A DNA stretch of 11,836 nucleotides, from contig JBBCAV010000194.1 in the NCBI GenBank assembly GCA_051382305.1, positions 1-11,836 of the forward strand. Direction: 5' to 3'. The notes below the pieces were generated by a model that did no database searches, was not told where the DNA came from, and worked only from the letters and a program-made list of their open reading frames with translations. How positions within the stretch are numbered: position 1 is the stretch's first letter; every line of letters starts with the position of its first letter. This DNA is from Bdellovibrionota bacterium FG-2 (GTDB lineage Bacteria > Bdellovibrionota > UBA1018). Both the position numbers and the translations under genes were made by a program. This document shows positions 850-11,766 of the stretch, one piece after another.

Positions 850-878
850 TTGATAATGATAAGCGTTATCATTATCAA
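850..878. promoter_or_regulatory. Fur-type operator (two overlapping Fur boxes; perfect 13-3-13 inverted repeat)
   Basis: TTGATAATGATAA-GCG-TTATCATTATCAA. 852-870 GATAATGATAAGCGTTATC matches the classical Fur consensus GATAATGATAATCATTATC at 17/19; a second box offset by 6 bp lies at 858-876. Sits in the divergent intergenic region 47 bp before the porin start. A TTGACT (-35-like) hexamer is at 835-840. Confidence 0.9.
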
Positions 879-925
879 CAACAGAGCAACAGCCCCTGAT
901 ACCGCCCCTAAACAGAAAGGATCCA

Positions 926-2047
926 ATGGCCAACCTTAAGCTTCTCTCATCAAGCTGTCTCCTCATCATATCGATGCATGCACTCACTAATGCGAGCGCC
1001 GATGCAACAGTGGAGACCACTACTGCGAGTGATAAACTCTACGCTTTGAGCCTCTCGTATGTCTCCGAAACCAGTGGCGCGCTCCAAGGAGGGCTGGAAC
1101 GCAAAATAAACCTCACGGGAAACCTACTCATTGATGCTCGCTTTGATCTTGGTGCTATCACCCACTTAAGCGGCTTGAGCCTCTACGCCCAAGGCATTGG
1201 CATTCACGGAGATTCTTTGAGCAAATCCGTGGGAGATGTTCAGGTGTCCAGCAATATCGATGCGCCAAAAGCCGCACGAATTTACCAGGCTTGGTTACAA
1301 AAAGAATTTGCTGGGGGGGCCGTCTCACTTCTCGCCGGCATCCACGACCTGAACTCAGAATTCTATTCAACAGAAGCATCAAGAATATTCTTAAACAGCT
1401 CCTTTGGTGTTGGCTCTGATCTATCGCACACAGGAGCTAACGGACCTTCGATTTTTCCAGAACCCGGAATGGCCATTCGCGCGAAAATTCGCCCCATCAA
1501 TGATTGGGAAATCTCCACCGCGATGTATGACGGCAATCCTGGCAGCTCCCCTTGGACTTCTGAAGATGGTGGCTTGGGAATCCTCGAGCTCGCTCACTCT
1601 CAAAAAATCAATGACCGCGACGGTCGTTACGCAATCGCTGCCTGGGGCTATAGCGCACAAAAGCAGACTCGCGGAGCCTATTTTCTGGCCAATCAGAAGA
1701 TTTACTCCCCCACTTCGAACGACCCACGAGGCTTGAGCGCCTTTGTCAGGACAGGACTTAGTGATCGTGGATCCGTTTCCAGCTCTTGGTCTTCAGGGGT
1801 GAACTACACGGGCGCCATTCGGACGCGCGATGAAGATCAGATGGGTTTTGCGATTACGCAAGCCAAGGGCATTGGCGAAGAAGGCGAGGAGTTGGCGCGC
1901 GAAACGGTCCTCGAATTCACTTATCTCGGGAAAATCAAACCCTGGTTTAGCGTACAACCCGATTTCCAATGGATCCTCAATCCGGGAATGGATTCAACAG
2001 CTGTGCCTGCACTCGTCGGAGCCGTCCGCTTGCAGGTGGTGTTCTAA
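926..2047 (+). CDS. OprB-family (carbohydrate-selective porin family) outer-membrane porin, 373 aa
   Basis: AAAGGA RBS; N-terminal signal peptide (..LTNASA); OprB-type motifs GDVQVSSNID, DLNSEF, FLNSSFG, GPSIFP, VQPDFQWILNPG; alternating beta-strand pattern and C-terminal Phe (RLQVVF) typical of BAM substrates. Confidence 0.88.
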   Translation: MANLKLLSSSCLLIISMHALTNASADATVETTTASDKLYALSLSYVSETSGALQGGLERKINLTGNLLIDARFDLGAITHLSGLSLYAQGIGIHGDSLSKSVGDVQVSSNIDAPKAARIYQAWLQKEFAGGAVSLLAGIHDLNSEFYSTEASRIFLNSSFGVGSDLSHTGANGPSIFPEPGMAIRAKIRPINDWEISTAMYDGNPGSSPWTSEDGGLGILELAHSQKINDRDGRYAIAAWGYSAQKQTRGAYFLANQKIYSPTSNDPRGLSAFVRTGLSDRGSVSSSWSSGVNYTGAIRTRDEDQMGFAITQAKGIGEEGEELARETVLEFTYLGKIKPWFSVQPDFQWILNPGMDSTAVPALVGAVRLQVVF

Positions 2048-2415
2048 TGATGAAACAATTCAAATTTCGATCAATTACCCTGTGTTTTGCTATTTTATCT
2101 GCCGTTTGTCTTGACCCAACCCGGGGTTCCGCAAACGAACTTCATATTGTGGGTTTGGATAAAAACAACCAAACAACCAGTGTGAGCGTGCCGGAAACGG
2201 TTTATCGTGAAGCACTCAAACAAGTGATTGGTTCCGTGCATGGATCAGCGCTCAAATCCTTGAGCGCTAAATCCTCTGGCGATTGGATGTTAAGAACTGT
2301 GGGGGTTGGGATCACAGTGACCCTCGCGGCAGGCTTGGGAGAGATCGCAAGCGTGAGTGCGCAAAAGACGATTCGCTTGATCTACTCAAACAGCTGTAGC
2401 CCGATTTTGCCTTAG
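2047..2415 (+). CDS. Hypothetical exported protein, 122 aa, one helix/beta-hairpin module
   Basis: ATG overlaps the porin stop (TAATG, 2045-2049), implying translational coupling; alternative ATG at 2050. Basic N-terminus plus hydrophobic stretch (MMKQFKFRSITLCFAILSAVC..GSA) looks like a Sec signal. C-terminal half is similar to the modules in the next two genes. Confidence 0.75.
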   Translation: MMKQFKFRSITLCFAILSAVCLDPTRGSANELHIVGLDKNNQTTSVSVPETVYREALKQVIGSVHGSALKSLSAKSSGDWMLRTVGVGITVTLAAGLGEIASVSAQKTIRLIYSNSCSPILP

Positions 2416-2438
2416 CCTTTTTTATTAAGGAGTTGCCC

Positions 2439-3842
2439 ATGAAAACCAGAAATCTATTGATCGTACTCACACTCGTGTCTACAGGCCTTGGCGGATGCCG
2501 CCCTTCAAAGCCCTCCTCTGTGATTCCATCGGATTGGTACAACTTACCCAACACCGAGAACTCAGAGACACCCTCAGCTGCAAGCAAAGGCCTCACAAAT
2601 AACCTCAAAGAGAATTTTGATCTACATGCACAGATTCTTGCTGAAGCCACTCAAGACGGCGCCGCAGCCGCCTCTTCTGTTGAAGATCAGGTCCCATGGC
2701 ATTTAAGTGCCGTGCAAATGAGACTAGGCCTTACTGCGGATGGACTTTTGGGTCCTTTGCTTTTCGCCGGAACGGCTGCCGTACAAACCGTTTGGATGCC
2801 TACCCAAGGGGAAGGCAAAATCAACTCGACGGACTCAAACCTCACCCTCAAGGGAAACCCACGCTCTGCTAATCTGGATCGCCAATTAGAGCCCATGATT
2901 CAAAGTGCCCTGTCCTCGAAACTCATCCGAAATGAAACAAAATTCAGAAAAAACGTCCTTCGCATTGGCGAGCGCTTCAAAGCCGTCGCGGCCCGACTTT
3001 ATGATCTTCATAGCGTAAAATCAAAGTGGGTCGCCCAGAAGTTCAGGCTCAAAATGGGTTTTGACGCCTCTGGCGATGTTCTCCCTTTTGGAGCCTTGGG
3101 AGCCACGATCAGCTTAAGATTTGACTGGGATAAGGCCTCTACGGATACCGATCCAGCAGTTCAAGTTCCGGCCCCGTCTTTGGATCCACTGAGTGAAAAT
3201 CTCGGACAGTTCGTCACTGCCGTGGCCCACGATCTCAATGCGATTCAACCCGCCATCGATGAAGTTCAAACCAGCGGATTCAGTCTCGGAGGGATACGCA
3301 TTGGACTCGCCATCACCGGCAGTGGAGAAGTCGGTATTGCCAAAGCGCTCACTTCGGTTGCGGGCAGCATTGAATTTGAGCGCACCAATTCACTGCAGGC
3401 TTTCGCCATCAACCTAAACTCCTCGCTGCCAAAATTTAATCCTATTATGCCGAATTTTATAAAAGCACAGACTGTTTCTGCCGACAACTCAGACAAGGAT
3501 GACAATGCCCCGATTCTGATGATTGACGATGCTCCGGCGGCTCACACTTTCGATACGGCAAGGCGATTAGGAATCCAATTCAACGTCATCGCCTCAAACT
3601 CTCAAACGACTCCTGATAAAGTTGTTTACAAGATTGACCGCTCGCGTCTCCGAAAGGGCTTGAGCAAAGCCGTTCGAATCGGCGCATTCTTTGCTAAAAG
3701 TGCGGCTCAGGCCAAAGTGGGAAAATGGAAAATATCAGAAATTTCTACTGAATACGACGCCTCCATTTCTGGTGCCCTGGGACTCGTCACGGCAAGCGGA
3801 CAAGGCATTGTCGAGCTTGTTTTTTCGAATAATAGCTTCTAA
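2439..3842 (+). CDS. Hypothetical lipoprotein, 467 aa, four internal helix/beta-hairpin modules
   Basis: AAGGAG RBS at 2427-2432 with ATG at 2439; signal MKTRNLLIVLTLVSTGLGG-C with lipobox-like LGGC followed by a Pro/Ser-rich tether; long open frame; four-fold internal repetition. Confidence 0.85.
   Translation: MKTRNLLIVLTLVSTGLGGCRPSKPSSVIPSDWYNLPNTENSETPSAASKGLTNNLKENFDLHAQILAEATQDGAAAASSVEDQVPWHLSAVQMRLGLTADGLLGPLLFAGTAAVQTVWMPTQGEGKINSTDSNLTLKGNPRSANLDRQLEPMIQSALSSKLIRNETKFRKNVLRIGERFKAVAARLYDLHSVKSKWVAQKFRLKMGFDASGDVLPFGALGATISLRFDWDKASTDTDPAVQVPAPSLDPLSENLGQFVTAVAHDLNAIQPAIDEVQTSGFSLGGIRIGLAITGSGEVGIAKALTSVAGSIEFERTNSLQAFAINLNSSLPKFNPIMPNFIKAQTVSADNSDKDDNAPILMIDDAPAAHTFDTARRLGIQFNVIASNSQTTPDKVVYKIDRSRLRKGLSKAVRIGAFFAKSAAQAKVGKWKISEISTEYDASISGALGLVTASGQGIVELVFSNNSF
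2589..3830 (+). repeat. Four diverged protein-level repeats (amphipathic helix plus aromatic-bounded beta-hairpin) in the lipoprotein
   Basis: Approximate spans 2589-2798, 2940-3134, 3186-3383, 3642-3830. Hairpins: WHLSAVQMRLGLTADGLLGPLLFAGTAAVQTVW; WVAQKFRLKMGFDASGDVLPFGALGATISLRFDW; FSLGGIRIGLAITGSGEVGIAKALTSVAGSIEF; WKISEISTEYDASISGALGLVTASGQGIVELVF. Each is 33-34 aa with Gly at position 16. Confidence 0.7.
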
Positions 3843-3862
3843 TTGAGAAAGGAAATTTATCG

Positions 3863-4141
3863 ATGCGCACTCCAATGATTCTCATTCTTTTTTCACTTTT
3901 GACTCCTGCCCTCTCGCAAGCAGAGAGCCTCCCAGATTTAAGCAGCCACTTTAACGAGATAATCGAGAATGCCGATCATGCGTTTTCGACCCAGAGTTCC
4001 TCCCAGCAGGCTTGTGATTGGGAATTCAAAGCGTTCTATCTGAATATCGCCCCCCACATCTCCTTTGGAATCTCAGGGGTTTTGGATCTTACAATTTCCC
4101 CAGATATTGTGCTGATTTGGGAGAAAGTTGGACCGCATTAG
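3863..4141 (+). CDS. Hypothetical exported protein, 92 aa, one helix/beta-hairpin module
   Basis: AAAGGA RBS; signal peptide MRTPMILILFSLLTPALSQA; the mature part is essentially one module (helix DLSSHFNEIIENADHAF, hairpin WEFKAFYLNIAPHISFGISGVLDLTISPDIVLIW). Confidence 0.8.
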   Translation: MRTPMILILFSLLTPALSQAESLPDLSSHFNEIIENADHAFSTQSSSQQACDWEFKAFYLNIAPHISFGISGVLDLTISPDIVLIWEKVGPH

Positions 4142-4164
4142 CGAAGCAATACGAGGGCTAAACC

Positions 4165-4189
4165 AATTATGATACCGGTTCTCATTATC
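4165..4189. promoter_or_regulatory. Second Fur-type operator
   Basis: AATTATGATACCGGTTCTCATTATC is 19/25 identical to 852-876. 4171-4189 matches the Fur consensus at 14/19; 7-1-7 core TGATACCGGTTCTCA. Intergenic, upstream of the dtxR-feoA/feoB genes. Confidence 0.7.
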
Positions 4190-4190
4190 C

Positions 4191-4219
4191 TTGTCTTCTG
4201 GCGACGATTCCGCTACAAT
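4191..4219 (+). promoter_or_regulatory. Sigma70-type promoter for the dtxR-feoA/feoB unit
   Basis: TTGTCT (4191-4196), 17-bp spacer, TACAAT (4214-4219); GGAGG RBS at 4234-4238 before ATG 4250. Confidence 0.7.
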
Positions 4220-4249
4220 TAACTCAACAATTCGGAGGTCCTATTTCCC

Positions 4250-4951
4250 ATGAATGCCACCCAAAATACCGAAACCCCCACATTACCAAGCGCGCTCGAA
4301 GATACGCTTGAAACCCTCTTCCTGCTTTTGCGCGACGGCAAAGCGGCAAGCATCAAAGACATTGCTCGCGCGCGCGAAACGAACTTAAAAGACGTTTCGG
4401 CTGCTTTGGCCCAGCTCAAGGACCTAGGCCTAATTCAAGTCACACCGGCAGACACGCTAGCCCTCACTGCTGAGGGAGAAAGAACCGCGATCCGAACCTT
4501 CTCGCGCCACCGATTGCTTTTGAGACTTTTTGAGGAAATCTTGGCGATGCCCCCTGCGATCGCTGAAGCCAATGCCTGTGCCATGGAGCACTCACTTAAC
4601 GCCGAAGGGATGGATCACGTGGAAAAATTTATTGAGTTCGTTCGAAACACTCCTGAAGGGAGCAAGATTGCCGGAGACTTTCGCAAATTCGTAGACTCCA
4701 AACAAACAAGCAATGATCTAACGGTTGCGGATCTGAAGGCCGGACAACGTGCGATCGTAAAAGAAGTTCGCGGCCGCGGCGCAATCAGACAACGGCTCCT
4801 GGATATGGGCATTATGCCTGACACCCTTATCAAGGTAGAGCGAAGAGCTCCGGCTGGCGATCCAATCTGGGTTAGACTTCAAGGCGGTCAGATCTCGTTA
4901 CGTCGCAAAGAATCCGACGCCATCATAGTGACCCACGAAAAACTGCAATAG
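4250..4951 (+). CDS. DtxR/MntR-family metalloregulator fused to a C-terminal FeoA domain, 233 aa
   Basis: N-terminal LEDTLE..IKDIA..L..LGLI..LTAEG winged helix; metal-binding/dimerisation motifs RHRLL and ACAMEH; C-terminal FeoA signature DLKAGQ..RQRLLDMGI.P..APAGDPI.V..ISLRRKES. Directly upstream of feoB. Confidence 0.9.
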   Translation: MNATQNTETPTLPSALEDTLETLFLLLRDGKAASIKDIARARETNLKDVSAALAQLKDLGLIQVTPADTLALTAEGERTAIRTFSRHRLLLRLFEEILAMPPAIAEANACAMEHSLNAEGMDHVEKFIEFVRNTPEGSKIAGDFRKFVDSKQTSNDLTVADLKAGQRAIVKEVRGRGAIRQRLLDMGIMPDTLIKVERRAPAGDPIWVRLQGGQISLRRKESDAIIVTHEKLQ

Positions 4952-4984
4952 AAAAAGAAAATAAAAAACGGAAAGAAGTCGAAC

Positions 4985-7153
4985 ATGGAACAAGATCTCA
5001 ATAAAATCCTCTCCCCCACCACAACCTCTCTAAAAAATGGCGCAGGCAAATCCTTGGACCAAACCAAGCCCATTAAAATCGCCCTTGCTGGGAATCCAAA
5101 TTCTGGAAAAACATCGATTTTTAACGCCCTCACGGGCTTGCGCCAACACGTGGGCAATTATCCTGGTGTCACTGTTGAAAAACGCGAAGGCGAGTACAAA
5201 GTAGGTTCAACTTCGTGCAGTGTCCTGGATCTGCCCGGCACCTATAGTTTAAACGGCTATTCACCCGAAGAGCAGATCGCGCAAGTCGAGCTGCTTAAGG
5301 GTGGGTTTGACGTCGTGATCGCGGTCATTGATTCAACGACGCTTAATCGAAGTCTTGTTTTTGTGTGTCAGCTCATGCAGCTGGGCGCGAATATCGTTCT
5401 TTGCCTGAACATGTCTGATGAAGCCAAAAAATCGGGTCAAGAACTGGACCTCAAACAGTTTGAGAAACTCTTAGGATTTCCTATTATTGAAACCGTCGCC
5501 CATCGTGGTATCGGGATGGACGCGCTCAAAGCAGCCGTCGTGAAGGCCTCAGCCACTCGCGCTCCTCAATCTCGCCTCGTCCTGGGCGATCGCTTAACAA
5601 TCGCGATTAAACGCATCACTGAAAAACTCTCAGGCAACAGCTCAGAAGTGAACGCTTGGCTCGCCATGCGACTTTTGCTTGACGACCCCGCAACCCTCCA
5701 GACCCTACGAGCACAAGGATTTGATGAAGCCATTAAAACAGCCGTTAAACTTCGCGCCGACATCGAGTCTGAAACGGGTCAGGATGTTGCACTTTTTGTG
5801 ATGTCCCAATACTACGGCTTTGTCGATGGCCTTCTTCGCGAAGTGATCACACGTCAACCCGTCGAAAATGCGCGAATCGTTTCCGACCGTATTGATTCGG
5901 TGTTGAGTCACCGCCTCCTGGGTCTCCCCTTCTTTGCCATTATTATGTACGCCGTGTTTTGGATTACGTTTAAGGGCGGCGAATTGCCTATGGATTGGAT
6001 TAAAGCGGGCGCAGAACTTCTTGGGAAATCTATTTCAGGTCTATGGCCGGTCGGCTCTGATTCCATCCTACGCTCCTTACTCGTCGACGGTATTATTGCA
6101 GGCGTAGGCGGGGTGATCGTATTTTTGCCAAACATTCTTTTGCTTTTCATGTGTCTCGCGTTTCTTGAAGACACGGGCTATATGGCGAGGGCGGCTTTTC
6201 TCATGGATCGCATGATGCATCTTTTTGGCTTACATGGGCGCAGTTTTATTCCCCTCATGAGTGGTTTCGGGTGCAGCGTTCCAGCCATCATGGCCACAAG
6301 GACCTTGGAGAACGAGCGGGATCGTTTAACCACGATGCTCGTGCTTCCGCTGATGTCTTGTGGTGCAAGACTCCCTATTTGGATGCTGCTCGTGCCTGCT
6401 TTTTTCGCGGCTCAACATCGAGCAGGGATATTGTGGCTCATTTATATGATCGGAATCGCGTTAGCCTTTGTGCTCGCGTTTCTCCTTCGCAATACCGTAC
6501 TCAAAGGCGAAGACGCTCCATTTGTGATGGAGCTACCCCCTTATCGATTGCCAACCCTCAAAGCCGTCTTCAATCGAATGGTCGAGAGAGCCTGGCTATA
6601 TCTTCAAAAAGCTGGCACGATCATTTTGGCCGTTTCAATTCTGATGTGGGTGCTCACGCGTTATCCACAAAAACAAAGTTTTGACATTGATGCAGCTGTC
6701 GCCTCTGGCCAAGTCTCTGGGCTCACTTCCGAGCAAATCGAACTGCGACGCAATTCAGAGTCGCTCGTTTATTCGGCCTCAGGGCGTGTGGGACACTTCA
6801 TCGAGCCCCTGATTAGACCTTTGGGTTTTGATTGGAAAATCGGCGTGGGGATTTTGGGCGCCTTTGCTGCAAAAGAAGTCTTCGTTGCCCAAATGGGCGT
6901 CATGTATGCGCTAGGCGGTGACACCAAAGATACAACCGATCTTCAGACAGCCCTAAAAGGGATGTACTCTACCAGAGTCGGATTCTCTTTGATTCTTTTC
7001 ATGCTCATTGCTACTCCCTGCATGGCAACGGTTGCCATCACGCGGCGAGAATCAGGCCGTTGGGGATGGGCGTTTCTGCAATTTGGAGGGCTCACGGCCA
7101 TCGCCTATGTGATTTCATTTTCCTTTTATACGATTTCGGGGTTTTTTGTATGA
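4985..7153 (+). CDS. feoB: Ferrous iron transport protein B, 722 aa
   Basis: G1 GNPNSGKT, G2 VGNYPGVTVE, G3 DLPG, G4 NMSD; membrane-domain motifs LEDTGYMARAAFLMD, GFGCSVP, MSCGARLP, FVMELPPYRLP, AKEVFV, TPCMAT. Confidence 0.98.
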   Translation: MEQDLNKILSPTTTSLKNGAGKSLDQTKPIKIALAGNPNSGKTSIFNALTGLRQHVGNYPGVTVEKREGEYKVGSTSCSVLDLPGTYSLNGYSPEEQIAQVELLKGGFDVVIAVIDSTTLNRSLVFVCQLMQLGANIVLCLNMSDEAKKSGQELDLKQFEKLLGFPIIETVAHRGIGMDALKAAVVKASATRAPQSRLVLGDRLTIAIKRITEKLSGNSSEVNAWLAMRLLLDDPATLQTLRAQGFDEAIKTAVKLRADIESETGQDVALFVMSQYYGFVDGLLREVITRQPVENARIVSDRIDSVLSHRLLGLPFFAIIMYAVFWITFKGGELPMDWIKAGAELLGKSISGLWPVGSDSILRSLLVDGIIAGVGGVIVFLPNILLLFMCLAFLEDTGYMARAAFLMDRMMHLFGLHGRSFIPLMSGFGCSVPAIMATRTLENERDRLTTMLVLPLMSCGARLPIWMLLVPAFFAAQHRAGILWLIYMIGIALAFVLAFLLRNTVLKGEDAPFVMELPPYRLPTLKAVFNRMVERAWLYLQKAGTIILAVSILMWVLTRYPQKQSFDIDAAVASGQVSGLTSEQIELRRNSESLVYSASGRVGHFIEPLIRPLGFDWKIGVGILGAFAAKEVFVAQMGVMYALGGDTKDTTDLQTALKGMYSTRVGFSLILFMLIATPCMATVAITRRESGRWGWAFLQFGGLTAIAYVISFSFYTISGFFV

Positions 7154-7353
7154 GTGGGAACATAATCGAACTAGCGGGAGTCGGCATAATTCTCGGAGGC
7201 ACTTCGTACTTTTTTGGAAAAAAGATATGGGGCAGCTTGCAAGGAGTGCCCGCCAAAAATCACAGTAATGCCAAGCCCGGCTGCGGTGGATGCAGCGGCT
7301 GCGGCTCCGCCCAAGCGATCCCTCCTGTAAAAACCAAGACGTCATGCCACTAA
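7150..7353 (+). CDS. FeoB-associated Cys-rich small membrane protein, 67 aa
   Basis: ATGA overlap with the feoB stop (7150-7153); single N-terminal hydrophobic segment followed by basic residues, GCGGCSGC motif and C-terminal CH. This is the usual architecture of the FeoB-associated Cys-rich family. Confidence 0.85.
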   Translation: MSGNIIELAGVGIILGGTSYFFGKKIWGSLQGVPAKNHSNAKPGCGGCSGCGSAQAIPPVKTKTSCH

Positions 7354-8000
7354 CTTCTACAGGAACTTCTTGGATTCGCTGGACCCTATATTTGGCCTGG
7401 TTCACGATTGGCTACAATCTACTCGAAGGAGTTGTATCAATCGGCTTTGGGCTTAACGATGAGTCTGTTGCCCTCGCGGGCTTTGGCGCGGATAGTCTCA
7501 TTGAAGTTGCGTCGGCCATTTTAGTTTTGTGGCGTTTCAGGGGCGAAGCCGGCCAAAAAGAGGGGTTATCCATCAATCGCGAACGCCAAACCACGCTGGG
7601 CATCGGTGTCTTATTTATCTTCTTGGCATTGCTCACCGCCCTCGCCTCTGCACTTCAGCTCAAGAGTGGCTCACACCCTTCGAGCACGCTTTCGGGTCTT
7701 GTGATATCGGCCGTGAGTTTGAGTTTCATGTTTTTTCTTTGGCAAGCCAAGAAAAAAGCCGCGCGCATTTTAAACAGTGCCACGGTCAGGAAGGACGCTG
7801 CTTGCTCCCTAGCCTGCATCAAATTGTCGATTATTCTGTTCTTCGGAAGTTTGGTTTATCTCGAATTTCCTGCGTTTTGGTGGATTGACTCAGTTGCAGG
7901 ACTTGGTCTAGCGCTTCTTATTGCAAAAGAAGGCTGGGAGACGGTGCGTACCGCCCGAAGGCCTGATTTTTCAGGGGGCTGTGGCTGCGCGTGTGACTAG
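7344..8000 (+). CDS. Cation transporter, CDF-like transmembrane domain only (TMEM163-like), 218 aa
   Basis: ATG 7344 overlaps the end of the upstream gene by 10 nt; about six hydrophobic segments; motifs YNLLEG, SVALAGFGADSLIE, LWRF, WWIDSVAGL, KEGWE; no cytoplasmic CDF C-terminal domain; ends GGCGCACD. Confidence 0.85.
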   Translation: MPLTSTGTSWIRWTLYLAWFTIGYNLLEGVVSIGFGLNDESVALAGFGADSLIEVASAILVLWRFRGEAGQKEGLSINRERQTTLGIGVLFIFLALLTALASALQLKSGSHPSSTLSGLVISAVSLSFMFFLWQAKKKAARILNSATVRKDAACSLACIKLSIILFFGSLVYLEFPAFWWIDSVAGLGLALLIAKEGWETVRTARRPDFSGGCGCACD

Positions 8001-8372
8001 ACTCTCCAGTCCCTTTAGCCCACGATTAATTGAAATAATCAACCTTTCATAATCCACAAGTTTCTCAAAAAAGTCGGCTGCCCCAAGCTTCAAAAAAGAA
8101 TCGCAAGCAATATCCTCTCCATGCCCCGTAATGATGAACACCAGCGTTGAAGGGAAACTTTCCTTTATTGACTTAAGTACTTCAATTCCGTCCATTTTGG
8201 GCATTCTTATATCCGTCACCACGACATCAGGAGAGGCCTGCTTAAAAATCTCCATTCCCATAATGCCATTCTCCGCGCCGAACACTTCGTATTCATCGAG
8301 GGCTAAAAGCTTCATCAATCCTTTACGGACAGGTTCTTCGTCATCGATGACTAAGACCTTAATACGGTCCAC
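7971..8372 (-). CDS. Stand-alone response regulator receiver domain, 133 aa
   Basis: VLVIDDE acidic pocket, phospho-acceptor TDIRMPKMDG, ITGHG, conserved Lys in FFEKL; GTG start overlapping the kinase stop (TAGTG) with GGAG RBS; no output domain. Confidence 0.92.
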   Translation of the reverse strand: MDRIKVLVIDDEEPVRKGLMKLLALDEYEVFGAENGIMGMEIFKQASPDVVVTDIRMPKMDGIEVLKSIKESFPSTLVFIITGHGEDIACDSFLKLGAADFFEKLVDYERLIISINRGLKGLESLVTRAATAP

Positions 8373-11300
8373 TATTTTTCTCCGCCGATAGGCAGACTGA
8401 CGGTAAAGGTGGTGCCCTTCTTCTGTTCACTTTTGACTTCGACTATCGCTTTATGCGATTCAATAATCCCATGTACGATAGACATCCCAAGCCCTGTGCC
8501 TTGTCCAACAGGCTTGGTCGTAAAAAAAGGTTCAAAAACTTTTTTTCTCACCTCATCACTCATGCCAATGCCATTATCAATTACTTCAACAAGGACATTG
8601 TTGCCCTCACATTTTGAGCTGATCGAAAGTCTCTTGCTGTAGGGCAAATTGCCGAGATCGCACTCAGTTTCCATTGAGTCAAGGGCGTCCCTCGCATTAG
8701 TAAGCAGGTTGATCCAGATTTGCTCCAGCCGAAATGGATCGCCGTTGATCCTGGGACATAAACTGCTCAGATCCTTTGCGATCTCAATACCGCGAAGCCT
8801 GAGCTGCTCCCCCATCAGCATAAGCGCGGATTCAATAGTCTCATTGATATCGATTTGACGCAGATTCAGAACTTCCTGCCTAGCAAAAGTACGAACATGT
8901 TTAATCACTTTCGTGCACCGCTCGACAGAAAGCGAGATGTCCTTGAGCGAAGTTTCAAGCTCCGCATCGGTCAGTAGATTTTTTTGTTTCATTTTCCTGA
9001 TCGCATGGACTGCTAAGGAGATGCCAGCCATCGGCTGATTCATTTCGTGCGCCATACCAGCAGACATCTCACCCAAAGTGGACAACTTCGATGATTGAAA
9101 GAGTTGGGCTTGTAGATCTTTCTCTTTTTGCTCTGAGTTTACAAGCTCAGTATTGTCGCGCACAGTGGCTATGAGTATTGATTCAGCCCCTCTCGGAATA
9201 CGGGTCAAGCGCACTTCAGCCGGGAACGATTCGCCATCAAGACGGGTGTGGGTCCATTGAAAAAAATGTTTCCCATCTTTCAAAGCCATCTCGATCATGG
9301 CCATTGCTTTCTGAGCCGATAGAGCACCATCGGGTTGATGTTCCGGCGATAGAACCCATGGAGGCGCAGCCGTAAAGGCCTCTACCGTAGGTGCTCTAAA
9401 CATCTTGAGCGTTGCTTCGTTCGCAGCGGCAAATCTCCAGGTCGGAGGCTCCAAGGTCATAATTGCATCCGATGTATGATTGAAAATAGTACGATGCTTT
9501 TCTTCGCTCTCCTTTAGCTGCATTTCCTTCTGTTTTATCTCAGTAATATCCTGAATAGTGCCCCGCAGCCTCACAACTTTCCCAGCAGGATCACGCAGTG
9601 GTTCGCAGATTGTGATAATGGTTCTTTCGCTACCGTCCGGACGATTGAGGCGCAACTCCATATTATAGGGAGTACCATTCTGGAAGGCTTCCCCCACCGC
9701 AGCGTCAAATCGCTGAAAATCGGCTGGGTGAATATATTTCTGGTGGTCACTATAGCGAGGCGGGCCAAGTGCGGGATCCAAACCCCAGATGTCAAACATA
9801 CCTTTTGTCCATTCAGGCTGCTGACTCACCGGATCGTAGGTCCAACTGCCGATAGCTGCCAAACGTTGCGCCTCTTCCAGTTCCAAATCTCTCTCTCGCA
9901 GCTTGTCCTCGGATTTTCTCCGCTCAGAGATATCTTCATGAATCGCAACCCAGACCTTGCCATATGTTGAATGCTCAAAAGTCTTGACAGTAGCTAGACA
10001 CCAAAAAGGCAATCCATTTTTCCTCACGTTCTGAACTTCGCCCCTCCACTCTGAGCTACGCACAAGGGCTGATATAATATGTTTTTCTGTTTCTTTAGAT
10101 TCTCGACTCACATCATTAAAGTTCAACACACCCACCTGTTGACCAATGAGTTCGCCAGTTTCGTAACCGAAAAGAGTTTCAAACTTTGGATTTACATACA
10201 CGATTCTCAAATCGTGCGCACTTGTAATAACAATACCATCGGTTAGGTTGTTCAGAATTAGGCTTTGCATCCTAAGCTCTGATTCAGCTTTCTTACGTTC
10301 GGTGATGTCCCGCGAAACGGTGAAAACATGCGGCACACCGTCTAGAAATATTCGAGAAGCATGAGCCTCCACATCAATCAAAGAACCATCCTTACGCTTG
10401 TGGGTCGTCTCGACCTTCAGCTCCTTACCTGCAAGTATGCTGGCGAGAACCTCCCGAACGTCCTCTAGGGAGAAACTGGGATTAACGTCCGCCGGAGTCA
10501 TCGACAGCAATTCTTCTCGTGTGTAACCGAGCTGACGACAAGTTGTTTCATTGACCTCAACAAAGCGCCCTCGTTCATTCAACACGTGGACATCATCGAC
10601 CGCTTGATCGAATAGAGCATGGAATCTGGCCTCGCTGTTCTTGAGAGACTCCGTCATTCGCTTGCGTTCGGTAATATCTTTGAAAAACCCAACAAGACAA
10701 GTTCTGCCGTTAATCTTCATTGCCGCTGAACAGATATCAGCGAAAACAATCGACCCATTCTTCGTTAAACAAGGAATACTTTCCGCTACTTTTTGTTCTC
10801 CTCTGGCCGATTTTTCAAATTGAGAAACCACAAAAGCCAATTGATCCTGAGGGTGGATTCCTAAAATATCCTTTTTTAATAATTCGTCTTGAGAATAGCC
10901 AAGAAGTAGAATCATAGCAGGATTGGCACCGACTACAGCCTTTGTTTCAATATCCGCAATCAATATGCCGTCGGGATTATTCTCAAAAAGTGATCTGAAT
11001 TTTTCCTCCCGATCCAGCAGTTCTTGCCTTGACACAGTTGAATATTTTAGCTCCTCAGAGAGCATATTTAAGCCAACAGCAAGAGTGTCAAATACACTCC
11101 CGTCTCCGACGACAGGGAGAATTTTTCCGAAATCCAATCCCGCAATAGAAGTGATCATGTCAAGAGCAGCATCTAAGTGGGCTTGGGCTTGGGCTTGGGC
11201 TTGGGCTTGGGCTTGGGCTTGGGCTTGGGCTTGGGCTTGCAATGACTGGGCGACCCCATTGAGCTTGTCAACAATAGAATCCAAAATATTTTTTGAATAA

Positions 11301-11380
11301 TCACCGTGCTGAAAATGGGACACCAAATCCATGAGTTCTAAGACAACCGCAAGAGGTTTTTTTTGATCAGTCTCACTCAT
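8372..11380 (-). CDS. Soluble multi-PAS sensor histidine kinase, about 1002 aa (HAMP-like x2, PAS x5, HisKA, HATPase_c)
   Basis: ATG 11380 in ATGA overlap with the upstream stop, AAGGA RBS. Five PAS/PAC units end in DITERK, DITERK, DISERR, DITEIK, DNTE. H-box GMAHEMNQP, N-box INLLTNARDA, G1 DNGIGM, F-box FEPFFTTK, G2 GTGLGM. No transmembrane segment seen. Confidence 0.95.
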   Translation of the reverse strand: MSETDQKKPLAVVLELMDLVSHFQHGDYSKNILDSIVDKLNGVAQSLQAQAQAQAQAQAQAQAQAQAHLDAALDMITSIAGLDFGKILPVVGDGSVFDTLAVGLNMLSEELKYSTVSRQELLDREEKFRSLFENNPDGILIADIETKAVVGANPAMILLLGYSQDELLKKDILGIHPQDQLAFVVSQFEKSARGEQKVAESIPCLTKNGSIVFADICSAAMKINGRTCLVGFFKDITERKRMTESLKNSEARFHALFDQAVDDVHVLNERGRFVEVNETTCRQLGYTREELLSMTPADVNPSFSLEDVREVLASILAGKELKVETTHKRKDGSLIDVEAHASRIFLDGVPHVFTVSRDITERKKAESELRMQSLILNNLTDGIVITSAHDLRIVYVNPKFETLFGYETGELIGQQVGVLNFNDVSRESKETEKHIISALVRSSEWRGEVQNVRKNGLPFWCLATVKTFEHSTYGKVWVAIHEDISERRKSEDKLRERDLELEEAQRLAAIGSWTYDPVSQQPEWTKGMFDIWGLDPALGPPRYSDHQKYIHPADFQRFDAAVGEAFQNGTPYNMELRLNRPDGSERTIITICEPLRDPAGKVVRLRGTIQDITEIKQKEMQLKESEEKHRTIFNHTSDAIMTLEPPTWRFAAANEATLKMFRAPTVEAFTAAPPWVLSPEHQPDGALSAQKAMAMIEMALKDGKHFFQWTHTRLDGESFPAEVRLTRIPRGAESILIATVRDNTELVNSEQKEKDLQAQLFQSSKLSTLGEMSAGMAHEMNQPMAGISLAVHAIRKMKQKNLLTDAELETSLKDISLSVERCTKVIKHVRTFARQEVLNLRQIDINETIESALMLMGEQLRLRGIEIAKDLSSLCPRINGDPFRLEQIWINLLTNARDALDSMETECDLGNLPYSKRLSISSKCEGNNVLVEVIDNGIGMSDEVRKKVFEPFFTTKPVGQGTGLGMSIVHGIIESHKAIVEVKSEQKKGTTFTVSLPIGGEK
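11180..11239 (-). repeat. Perfect hexanucleotide microsatellite (CAAGCC)10 encoding (Gln-Ala)10
   Basis: Ten exact GGGCTT units on + (11179-11238), read as CAA GCC x10 in the kinase frame with no synonymous variation. Confidence 0.98.
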
Positions 11381-11766
11381 TTCAATAATTCCTTTAGCCA
11401 ACTGATAGCATCCTCTTCTGAGGTGAATAAACGAGTCGGGTAAATCGTCTTATTCAACCCCAGAAAAAAATTCCCGATGACTCGACCGATAGGAGAGCCA
11501 ATCACAAGAGCAGTCGCATAGACATTTTTCGCGGCTTCTGGGCCGCCTAAATATGAGCGGGCATCACGGCTCATAGATTTCATAGACCCCATCCTAACTA
11601 GAAGAGGCCGTTTAATTCCTGCAGCCAAAACTGCCTGGGCGTTGATACTTTCCACTGCATCGCTAAGATTCATCTCGGCATTTGGAGATACGTCTACTTG
11701 AAGAATGCCATCTTTACGAAGAAAAGTGGTGGAAATTCTTAACTCAATCACTTTGGATTCGCTCAT
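11377..11766 (-). CDS. STAS/SEC14 (SpoIIAA-like) domain protein, 129 aa
   Basis: Pattern DGIL..RPLLV..MSRDARSY..ALVIGSPIGRVIGNFFL..PTRLFTSEEDAISWL; the C-terminal FxxxxxAxxWL motif is characteristic of SpoIIAA-like/STAS-SEC14 proteins; coupled to the kinase by ATGA overlap. Confidence 0.8.
   Translation of the reverse strand: MSESKVIELRISTTFLRKDGILQVDVSPNAEMNLSDAVESINAQAVLAAGIKRPLLVRMGSMKSMSRDARSYLGGPEAAKNVYATALVIGSPIGRVIGNFFLGLNKTIYPTRLFTSEEDAISWLKELLK

Follow-up and report, generated by a model that had tools for sequence, protein, structure and literature searches.

A candidate three-gene Pepco-like barrel in a probably Fur-controlled feo locus of Bdellovibrionota

We analyzed a stretch of 11,836 nucleotides from Bdellovibrionota bacterium FG-2 (contig JBBCAV010000194.1 of assembly GCA_051382305.1; hereafter, the window), in which a Fur operator precedes an OprB-family porin gene, three genes for exported proteins (A, B, and C), and a feo iron-uptake cluster. 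The unit is the A-B-C trio, which is fixed across Bdellovibrionota, and in structural models its products look like one membrane channel, a hetero-oligomeric exported barrel. Our preferred reading is that the trio forms an undescribed hetero-oligomeric outer-membrane channel that was recruited once into a feoP-like Fur operon for Fe(II) entry; given the models and comparisons below, we regard this reading as an even call.

The A-B-C trio and its predicted fold

A search with the single B sequence found only 2 relatives; the profile search yielded 494 representatives at 50% identity. Gene order was examined in 83 fetched stretches holding 85 B genes, many of which stop at contig edges. A lay upstream of B for 82 of the 83 B genes with room for it, and C followed B in 79 of 82 cases, either as a separate gene (71) or fused to the end of B (8), as in L080 and L016. 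Of the genomes screened, B was present in 15 of 116 from the order, 41 of 401 in the phylum sample, and 45 of 237 from one further family, with up to four copies per genome (G101), and the named members of the three protein families belong to Bdellovibrionota/Oligoflexia. No relatives of B were found in viral contigs, plasmids, or two metagenome pattern scans, blanks that do not show absence because these scans need near-exact peptides. At one locus (L175) the whole trio is tandemly duplicated.

In the window, subunit A (2047-2415, + strand; 122 aa; 47-member alignment) carries a signal peptide, a helix, and one amphipathic beta-hairpin at about residues 80-113, and subunit C (3863-4141, +; 92 aa; 41-member alignment) a signal peptide, a helix, and one hairpin. 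Subunit B (2439-3842, +) is a 467-aa lipoprotein with its lipobox at Cys20 and four helix-plus-hairpin, Pepco-like repeats. The initial annotation had presented all three as unknown proteins, but B matches Pepco (PF24393) at 37.7 bits against a cut-off of 27. Among 23 further B proteins, 15 matched Pepco at E ≤ 0.001 and 11 exceeded the cut-off, while 8 had no match; weak Trypco1 matches accompanied Pepco in these family scans. No Pepco match appeared among the 47 members of A or the 41 of C (a single A protein reached Trypco1 at E 0.36), nor among the OprB, alginate-export, and MetA-type beta-barrel porins that were scanned as well. The nearest Atlas clusters were all Trypco2, with scores of 0.77-0.81 that serve as leads only.

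Signal-peptide-like N-termini were detected by a crude rule in 47/47 A, 136/146 B, and 40/41 C proteins, and a lipobox-like motif in 63 of 138 full-length B proteins. A C-terminal Phe, found in 59 of these 138, was considered as a beta-signal and not counted, because it stands several residues past the last strand. As a separate observation, a clade near the iron-linked B proteins in alignment A7 (P0003, P0008, P0009, P0010, P0022, and P0038) shares a conserved acidic insert, placed between repeats 3 and 4, that contains a Dx-Dx-DG run together with two Cys and a His and is possibly a metal-binding loop.

An AlphaFold2 model of B built with 146 sequences showed four helix-plus-hairpin units at a predicted local distance difference test (pLDDT) of 84; an earlier 8-sequence model (pLDDT 54) was not used. 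In hhalign, the B repeats matched one another at 91-96% and A matched them at 90-96%, against at most 12% for reversed controls, while for C the figures were 96% with A and a weaker 47-85% with the B repeats. Column profiles of the twelve strands revealed strict hydrophobic/polar alternation over about 16 positions each, with hydrophobic tips. Together with the B model, these profiles display the Pepco-type features, namely an amphipathic helix plus hairpin, a hydrophobic exterior, and a charged lumen; the strand pattern is the one given for Pepco barrels in 10.1101/2025.11.14.688446.

A model of the A-B-C complex scored 0.86, whereas the best of three controls stayed at 0.00. Of the reference pairs, 116 of 157 solved and 2 of 215 mismatched ones attained that mark, with the reservation that the score covers A only and that this job, with three chains and their own alignments, was unlike the calibration. 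The runs shared 84% of their contacts, with a partner pLDDT of 72 or more. In the closest pairs, the first strand of A runs antiparallel to strand 2 of C and its second strand antiparallel to strand 1 of B, an arrangement that places A between C and B. These A-C and A-B contacts, combined with the natural B-C fusions, point to a cyclic order A, B1-B4, C in a 12-stranded barrel, in which B-C would close the ring. We further infer a closed barrel of 1:1:1 stoichiometry, a location in the outer membrane, a role in transport, and the substrate. By these models, A, B, and C look like barrel-wall subunits rather than binding proteins. Multi-protomer barrel walls are familiar from TolC and CsgG, export barrels in which hairpins from several chains form the wall over a helical or periplasmic body and of which CsgG is anchored as a lipoprotein. 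The trio would resemble them in this wall, whereas TolC and CsgG are homo-oligomers for export.

Pepco, Trypco1, and Trypco2 (PF24393, PF19493, and PF19631) are treated in a preprint by Evans et al. (10.1101/2025.11.14.688446) and by Kaur et al. (PMC7159879). As described in the preprint, Pepco is a single unit of ~117 aa that assembles into homo-9/10-mers, and an adjacent protease clips its C-terminal tail, after which the pore kills the cell; its main text mentions no signal peptides, tandem units, lipoproteins, or Bdellovibrio. The trio has in common with the Pepco/Trypco group the unit of an amphipathic helix and a long beta-hairpin, the hydrophobic outer face, the charged lumen, and the Pfam match in B. 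In contrast to the single unit of the Pepco homo-oligomer, the trio appears to spread six diverged units over three exported chains (1+4+1), one of them a lipoprotein, and where Pepco modules have a protease next door, the trio has none adjacent and shows nutrient-type regulation. A trypsin-like protease was adjacent in 0 of 83 loci (homologs occurred in 3, all at least 2.7 kb away), and about 150 scanned neighbors included no trypsin or caspase, with other peptidase types appearing sporadically. A Pepco/Trypco2 search found 0 of 301 genomes over either cut-off, in a scan that is insensitive to split repeats and missed B of the window too. The trio is Pepco-like in architecture yet falls outside the protease-effector modules. 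In the literature searched, which lay mostly outside subscription journals and whose supplements may bear on the point, no account of exported or tandem Pepco proteins as a family was found.

The probably Fur-controlled iron locus and its relatives

All eight open reading frames of the cluster (926-8000) were verified, in one direction and at their previously given lengths, and Pfam/NCBIfam confirmed the porin, DtxR-FeoA, FeoB, and CDF families, in line with the initial annotation. The first encodes the OprB-family porin (926-2047, +; 373 aa; PF04966, E 6.6e-39), which holds a FeoP-like position; its stop overlaps the start of A, so the trio would be Fur-repressed. After the trio come a DtxR/MntR-type repressor with a C-terminal FeoA domain (4250-4951, +; 233 aa; PF02742 and PF04023) and FeoB (4985-7153, +; 722 aa; TIGR00437, E 5e-171) with intact GTPase motifs. 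They are followed by a small Cys-rich membrane protein in a FeoB-associated position (7150-7353, +; 67 aa), with only a weak DUF6587 match (E 0.01) and no match to FeoC, and by the short cation diffusion facilitator (CDF) transporter (7344-8000, +; 218 aa; PF01545, E 2.4e-9) with a Cys-rich tail, in which no dimerization domain was detected.

The near-consensus Fur operator said to head the cluster proved to be a perfect 13-bp inverted repeat (operator 1, 850-878) with two overlapping 19-bp boxes inside. A search with a Fur consensus gave 3 matches at ≤3 mismatches, whereas 200 shuffles averaged 0.01, and the operator holds the sole Fur-like match at ≤2 mismatches across the 4.3-Mb assembly. 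It overlaps a probable promoter, P1 (835-863, +), with a -35 hexamer at 835-840, a 17-nt spacer, and a weak -10, which was read by eye and not called by the promoter scan. A second Fur-like box (4171-4189, +) stands before dtxR-feoA and is followed directly by a sigma70-like promoter, P2 (4191-4219, +); the initial annotation had overlooked both. With this box and promoter, the feo genes need not depend on the genes upstream and may have their own promoter. In agreement with the earlier reading, the terminator scan gave no + strand match in any intergenic gap (20 scan matches in all, against 13.9 +/- 3.3 in shuffles), and Rfam found nothing in the window. Two Fur homologs are encoded in the host genome. 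These sequence features make it very probable that Fur controls the cluster and that its role is to supply Fe(II), probably through two Fur-controlled entry points.

The operon is intact in one genome of the same genus (L011) and one of the same family (L012), with porin orthologs 82% and 65% identical, respectively. Both retain operator 1, the -35 hexamer and spacing of P1, the second Fur-like box, and the CDF gene; P2 is conserved in L011, and the 67-aa gene (63% identical) was confirmed only there. The arrangement is thus intact across two genera in which B is ~50% identical. Two named records (L197 and L198) have this arrangement as well; as possible duplicates of counted loci, they were left out of the counts.

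In L011 and L012 the operon adjoins the edge of a magnetosome cluster with mamM/B-like and mamE-like genes. The assembly of the window has its mam genes on another contig (C68), where mamA-, mamQ-, mamB-, mamM-, and mamE-like genes lie with a fur; the best matches fall below the curated cut-offs. MamA turned up in 5 of the 116 genomes from the order. Magnetotactic members of Bdellovibrionota, a largely predatory phylum, are described in PMC13200544, in which the isolate of L197 is among the genomes with a magnetosome cluster and two-component clusters are noted near these clusters; its main text does not contain 'feo' and has porins solely in a reference. The host encodes three FeoB homologs in total and a TonB-dependent receptor, and the idea of a cell without TonB uptake was rejected on finding the latter.

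The cluster is a variant of a known arrangement. In Acidithiobacillus ferrooxidans, feoPABC has a Fur box, an OprB-family porin, and then a feoA/feoB cluster; the porin was proposed to admit Fe(II), and Fur binding and repression were shown in vitro (PMC1874648, PMC2621215). Both systems share a Fur box upstream of an OprB-family porin clustered with feoA and feoB. Here, in contrast, the porin gene is separated from feoA by three barrel-like genes together with a second Fur box and a promoter, the FeoA domain is joined to a DtxR-type one, FeoC has no match, and a CDF gene lies downstream. The module had been put forward as undescribed; this seems right for the trio, but an OprB porin in a Fur-repressed feo operon was already known. 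A TonB-independent outer-membrane partner for FeoB also has a precedent in Francisella, where FupA-FeoB is described as such a route feeding inner-membrane uptake (PMC4905997, PMC7432831), and Synechocystis Slr1908 is an SLH/OprB porin on a TonB-independent route for inorganic iron (PMC8707739). Slr1908 and FupA are single-chain porins, with no Pepco-like multi-chain barrel.

Several further features were noted around the operon and in the host. A divergent ferritin/rubrerythrin-like gene (280-723, -; PF02915, E 0.0095; 89% identical in L011) may share the iron-responsive intergenic region with the operon. Also on the - strand (7971-11766) are genes for a response regulator, a 1009-aa multi-PAS histidine kinase, and a DUF7793 protein; the kinase has a Gln-Ala run, and a hexamer repeat lies near 11178-11240. 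In the host assembly (G000), the contig C68 locus (L017) is a magnetosome cluster with an embedded fur, contig C7 bears an actin-like gene beside a second DtxR-FeoA, and two further FeoB homologs occur within the same group of contigs, which also includes C158 and C346.

Other trio loci

Elsewhere the trio is found in differing nutrient settings. At two loci of one genus (L073 and L173), a cobalamin riboswitch immediately precedes A and cbtA lies downstream of C, and in L073 the trio is followed by cbtA-cbiX-cbiD, with cobalamin synthesis genes. At L097, a Fur box with 1 mismatch stands 34 nt upstream of A (shuffle p 0.003), a value near chance with 82 upstream regions tested, although the 1-mismatch palindrome also supports it; its sister L016 has a weaker box (p 0.017). 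L093 has a pstS-like gene of the phosphate-binding type 11 nt before A, which is followed by B-C. L080 carries sbtA, a PII-like gene, and a gene for an unannotated exported protein before A and B/C, and L095 has a Mrp/DabB-like gene before A and, after C, a homolog of that exported protein. An Rfam scan of part of the 83 loci found, beyond the two cobalamin riboswitches, just tRNA/tmRNA. From the upstream sequences, trio copies outside the iron locus appear to be under metal-responsive control at a minority of loci, which supports a nutrient channel.

Other observations concern neighbors of the trio. The exported proteins of L080 (5616-6716) and L095 (3203-4098) share 38% identity; both neighbor the trio as well as a gene for inorganic-carbon uptake, and they are possibly a second barrel paired with the trio like the OprB porin of the window. 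At L182 (5818-6925) the trio directly follows genes for an ArsC-like protein and a MIP protein of the aquaglyceroporin type. A PepSY-TM gene flanks the trios of L100, L106, L163, L167, L174, and L193, usually with a GCS2-like gene too. Upstream of A, L168 carries a perfect 8-bp inverted repeat that might be the operator of a different regulator, and its trio has a predicted acidic lumen of -12.

The net charge of the inferred lumen was negative in 17 of 78 loci (median +4). All 7 loci with a Fur or B12 signal had a negative lumen (-2 to -15), and four loci in an anion or metalloid context had lumens of +2 to +11, in a post hoc comparison that spans three lineages and takes its lumen positions from the alternation pattern.

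A proposed recruited channel and its alternatives

In the mechanism that we propose, A, B, and C would be exported and would form, at 1:1:1, a 12-stranded beta-barrel that bears a helical skirt, the six Pepco-like helix-hairpin units running in gene order from A through B1-B4 to C and back to A. The hydrophobic face and tips would sit in the outer membrane, with the lipid of B anchoring the complex. Such a trio would be a self-contained channel for small solutes under nutrient control that differs by lineage, and in the magnetosome-gene-bearing lineage it would have been placed once behind the OprB/FeoP-like porin under Fur. Iron shortage would then induce both outer-membrane routes and bring Fe(II) to the periplasm for FeoAB, itself also made from its own Fur-boxed promoter, and the CDF protein may balance or deliver iron. 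An added Fe(II) route would suit cells with the high iron demand of magnetosomes. More tentatively, we suggest a wider and undescribed class of outer-membrane channels, a hetero-trimeric 12-stranded barrel derived from or ancestral to the Pepco/Trypco fold of anti-phage pores, with its lumen charge adjusted to Fe(II), Co(II), phosphate, or bicarbonate in different Bdellovibrionota and supplying iron for magnetosomes in magnetotactic members; in this full form the proposal is less likely than not.

Besides the limits given above on the complex score, the L097 box, and the charge comparison, a number of results weigh against the recruited channel. On the structural side, related hairpins may pair in the complex model by likeness, and sequence searches of solved structures gave no meaningful E for B or A (C had only E 0.004 matches to designed helical proteins). 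Fold searches with the whole 467-aa B model reached at best E 0.03 in Foldseek and Z 5.3 in VIA, the latter with a root-mean-square deviation of 5.5 over 92 residues. As to iron, the OprB porin alone could account for Fe(II) entry, no trio match was found in the mamA-bearing genome G027 (90% complete), and the predicted lumens of the iron-linked trios are weakly acidic (-2 to -4). Ten other negative-lumen loci have no detected metal-responsive element, L172 has a lumen of +10 beside a DtxR-like gene, and most of the 83 loci have unrelated housekeeping genes as neighbors and no detected regulatory signal. Finally, the three iron-linked B proteins fall in one clade (Shimodaira-Hasegawa-like approximate likelihood ratio test 100, in a quick tree of 64 rows), which indicates one recruitment.

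This single clade is also what one would expect if the trio were a barrel with a general envelope role unconnected with iron that became lodged a single time between feoAB and a FeoP-like porin, with Fe(II) entering through the OprB porin alone, in the manner suggested for feoPABC. Of the alternatives this one survives best, and we hold it to be unlikely. It fits the mostly random neighbors of the trio, the internal Fur box and promoter that allow feo to be read without it, and the rarity of the iron setting: porin and feoB neighbored the trio in only 3 of the 83 stretches (the window, L011, and L012). At L169 an OprB gene lies >4 kb off on the other strand, and L013, from a mamA genome, has just 354 bases downstream, with the porin unmatched in that genome. 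However, the arrangement has stayed intact across two genera despite the divergence of B, the porin-A overlap would bring the trio under Fur repression, and in independent lineages a B12 riboswitch or a Fur box immediately precedes the trio.

Since the known member of the fold is a pore-forming killer (10.1101/2025.11.14.688446) and the named families belong to a largely predatory phylum, the trio might instead be a three-component pore exported into prey membranes, releasing ions and cofactors, with nutrient regulation mirroring feeding. The hydrophobic hairpin tips, the lack of a lipobox-like motif in more than half of full-length B proteins, and the up to four copies per genome would agree with this. 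We nevertheless consider it improbable: the lipobox of B in the window would tether B to its producer, the trio is patchy in the phylum sample, and it appears co-transcribed with the cell's own importers (feo, cbtA, pstS, and sbtA).

The initial annotation had proposed a dedicated, TonB-independent outer-membrane/periplasmic module of porin, A, B, and C that delivers Fe(II) to FeoB; as a relay, this would have the three unknowns bind the porin in the periplasm or at the surface. All four genes do lie adjacent behind one Fur operator in three genomes, and the Fur control, the Fe(II) supply, and an envelope role carry over, the unknowns looking like a channel. The dedicated four-gene relay itself is very improbable. 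When the neighbors of the homologs were scored, as had been suggested, 80 of 83 trio loci lacked adjacent porin and feo genes, an outcome that the initial annotation itself had named as refuting such a module, and 21 of 24 OprB homolog loci in the order lacked the trio within 1.5 kb; moreover, A, B, and C resemble barrel-wall subunits, and no conserved iron-binding motif was seen in their alignments. Two OprB homologs (L199 in G049 and L200 in G003) have Fur-like boxes upstream (1 and 3 mismatches), with no feo or trio nearby. Least credible is a canonical Pepco-type anti-phage death pore with its protease encoded elsewhere, to which the Pepco, Trypco1, and Trypco2 matches might point: a classical defense pore fails on the lack of an adjacent protease and on the export signals of all three subunits, and nutrient-responsive control would be unexpected for abortive infection.

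If the recruited channel is correct, a fold of immune death pores would have been reused as a regulated nutrient channel, with a barrel wall built from three different genes. The 494 representatives at 50% identity would form a natural series for relating lumen charge to ion selectivity, and for deep-branching magnetotactic bacteria there would be specific outer-membrane candidates for the entry of iron, a step that heterologous expression could then test. Should the iron link fail, the exported tandem Pepco family would still represent an unannotated and structurally unmatched envelope complex of predatory bacteria.

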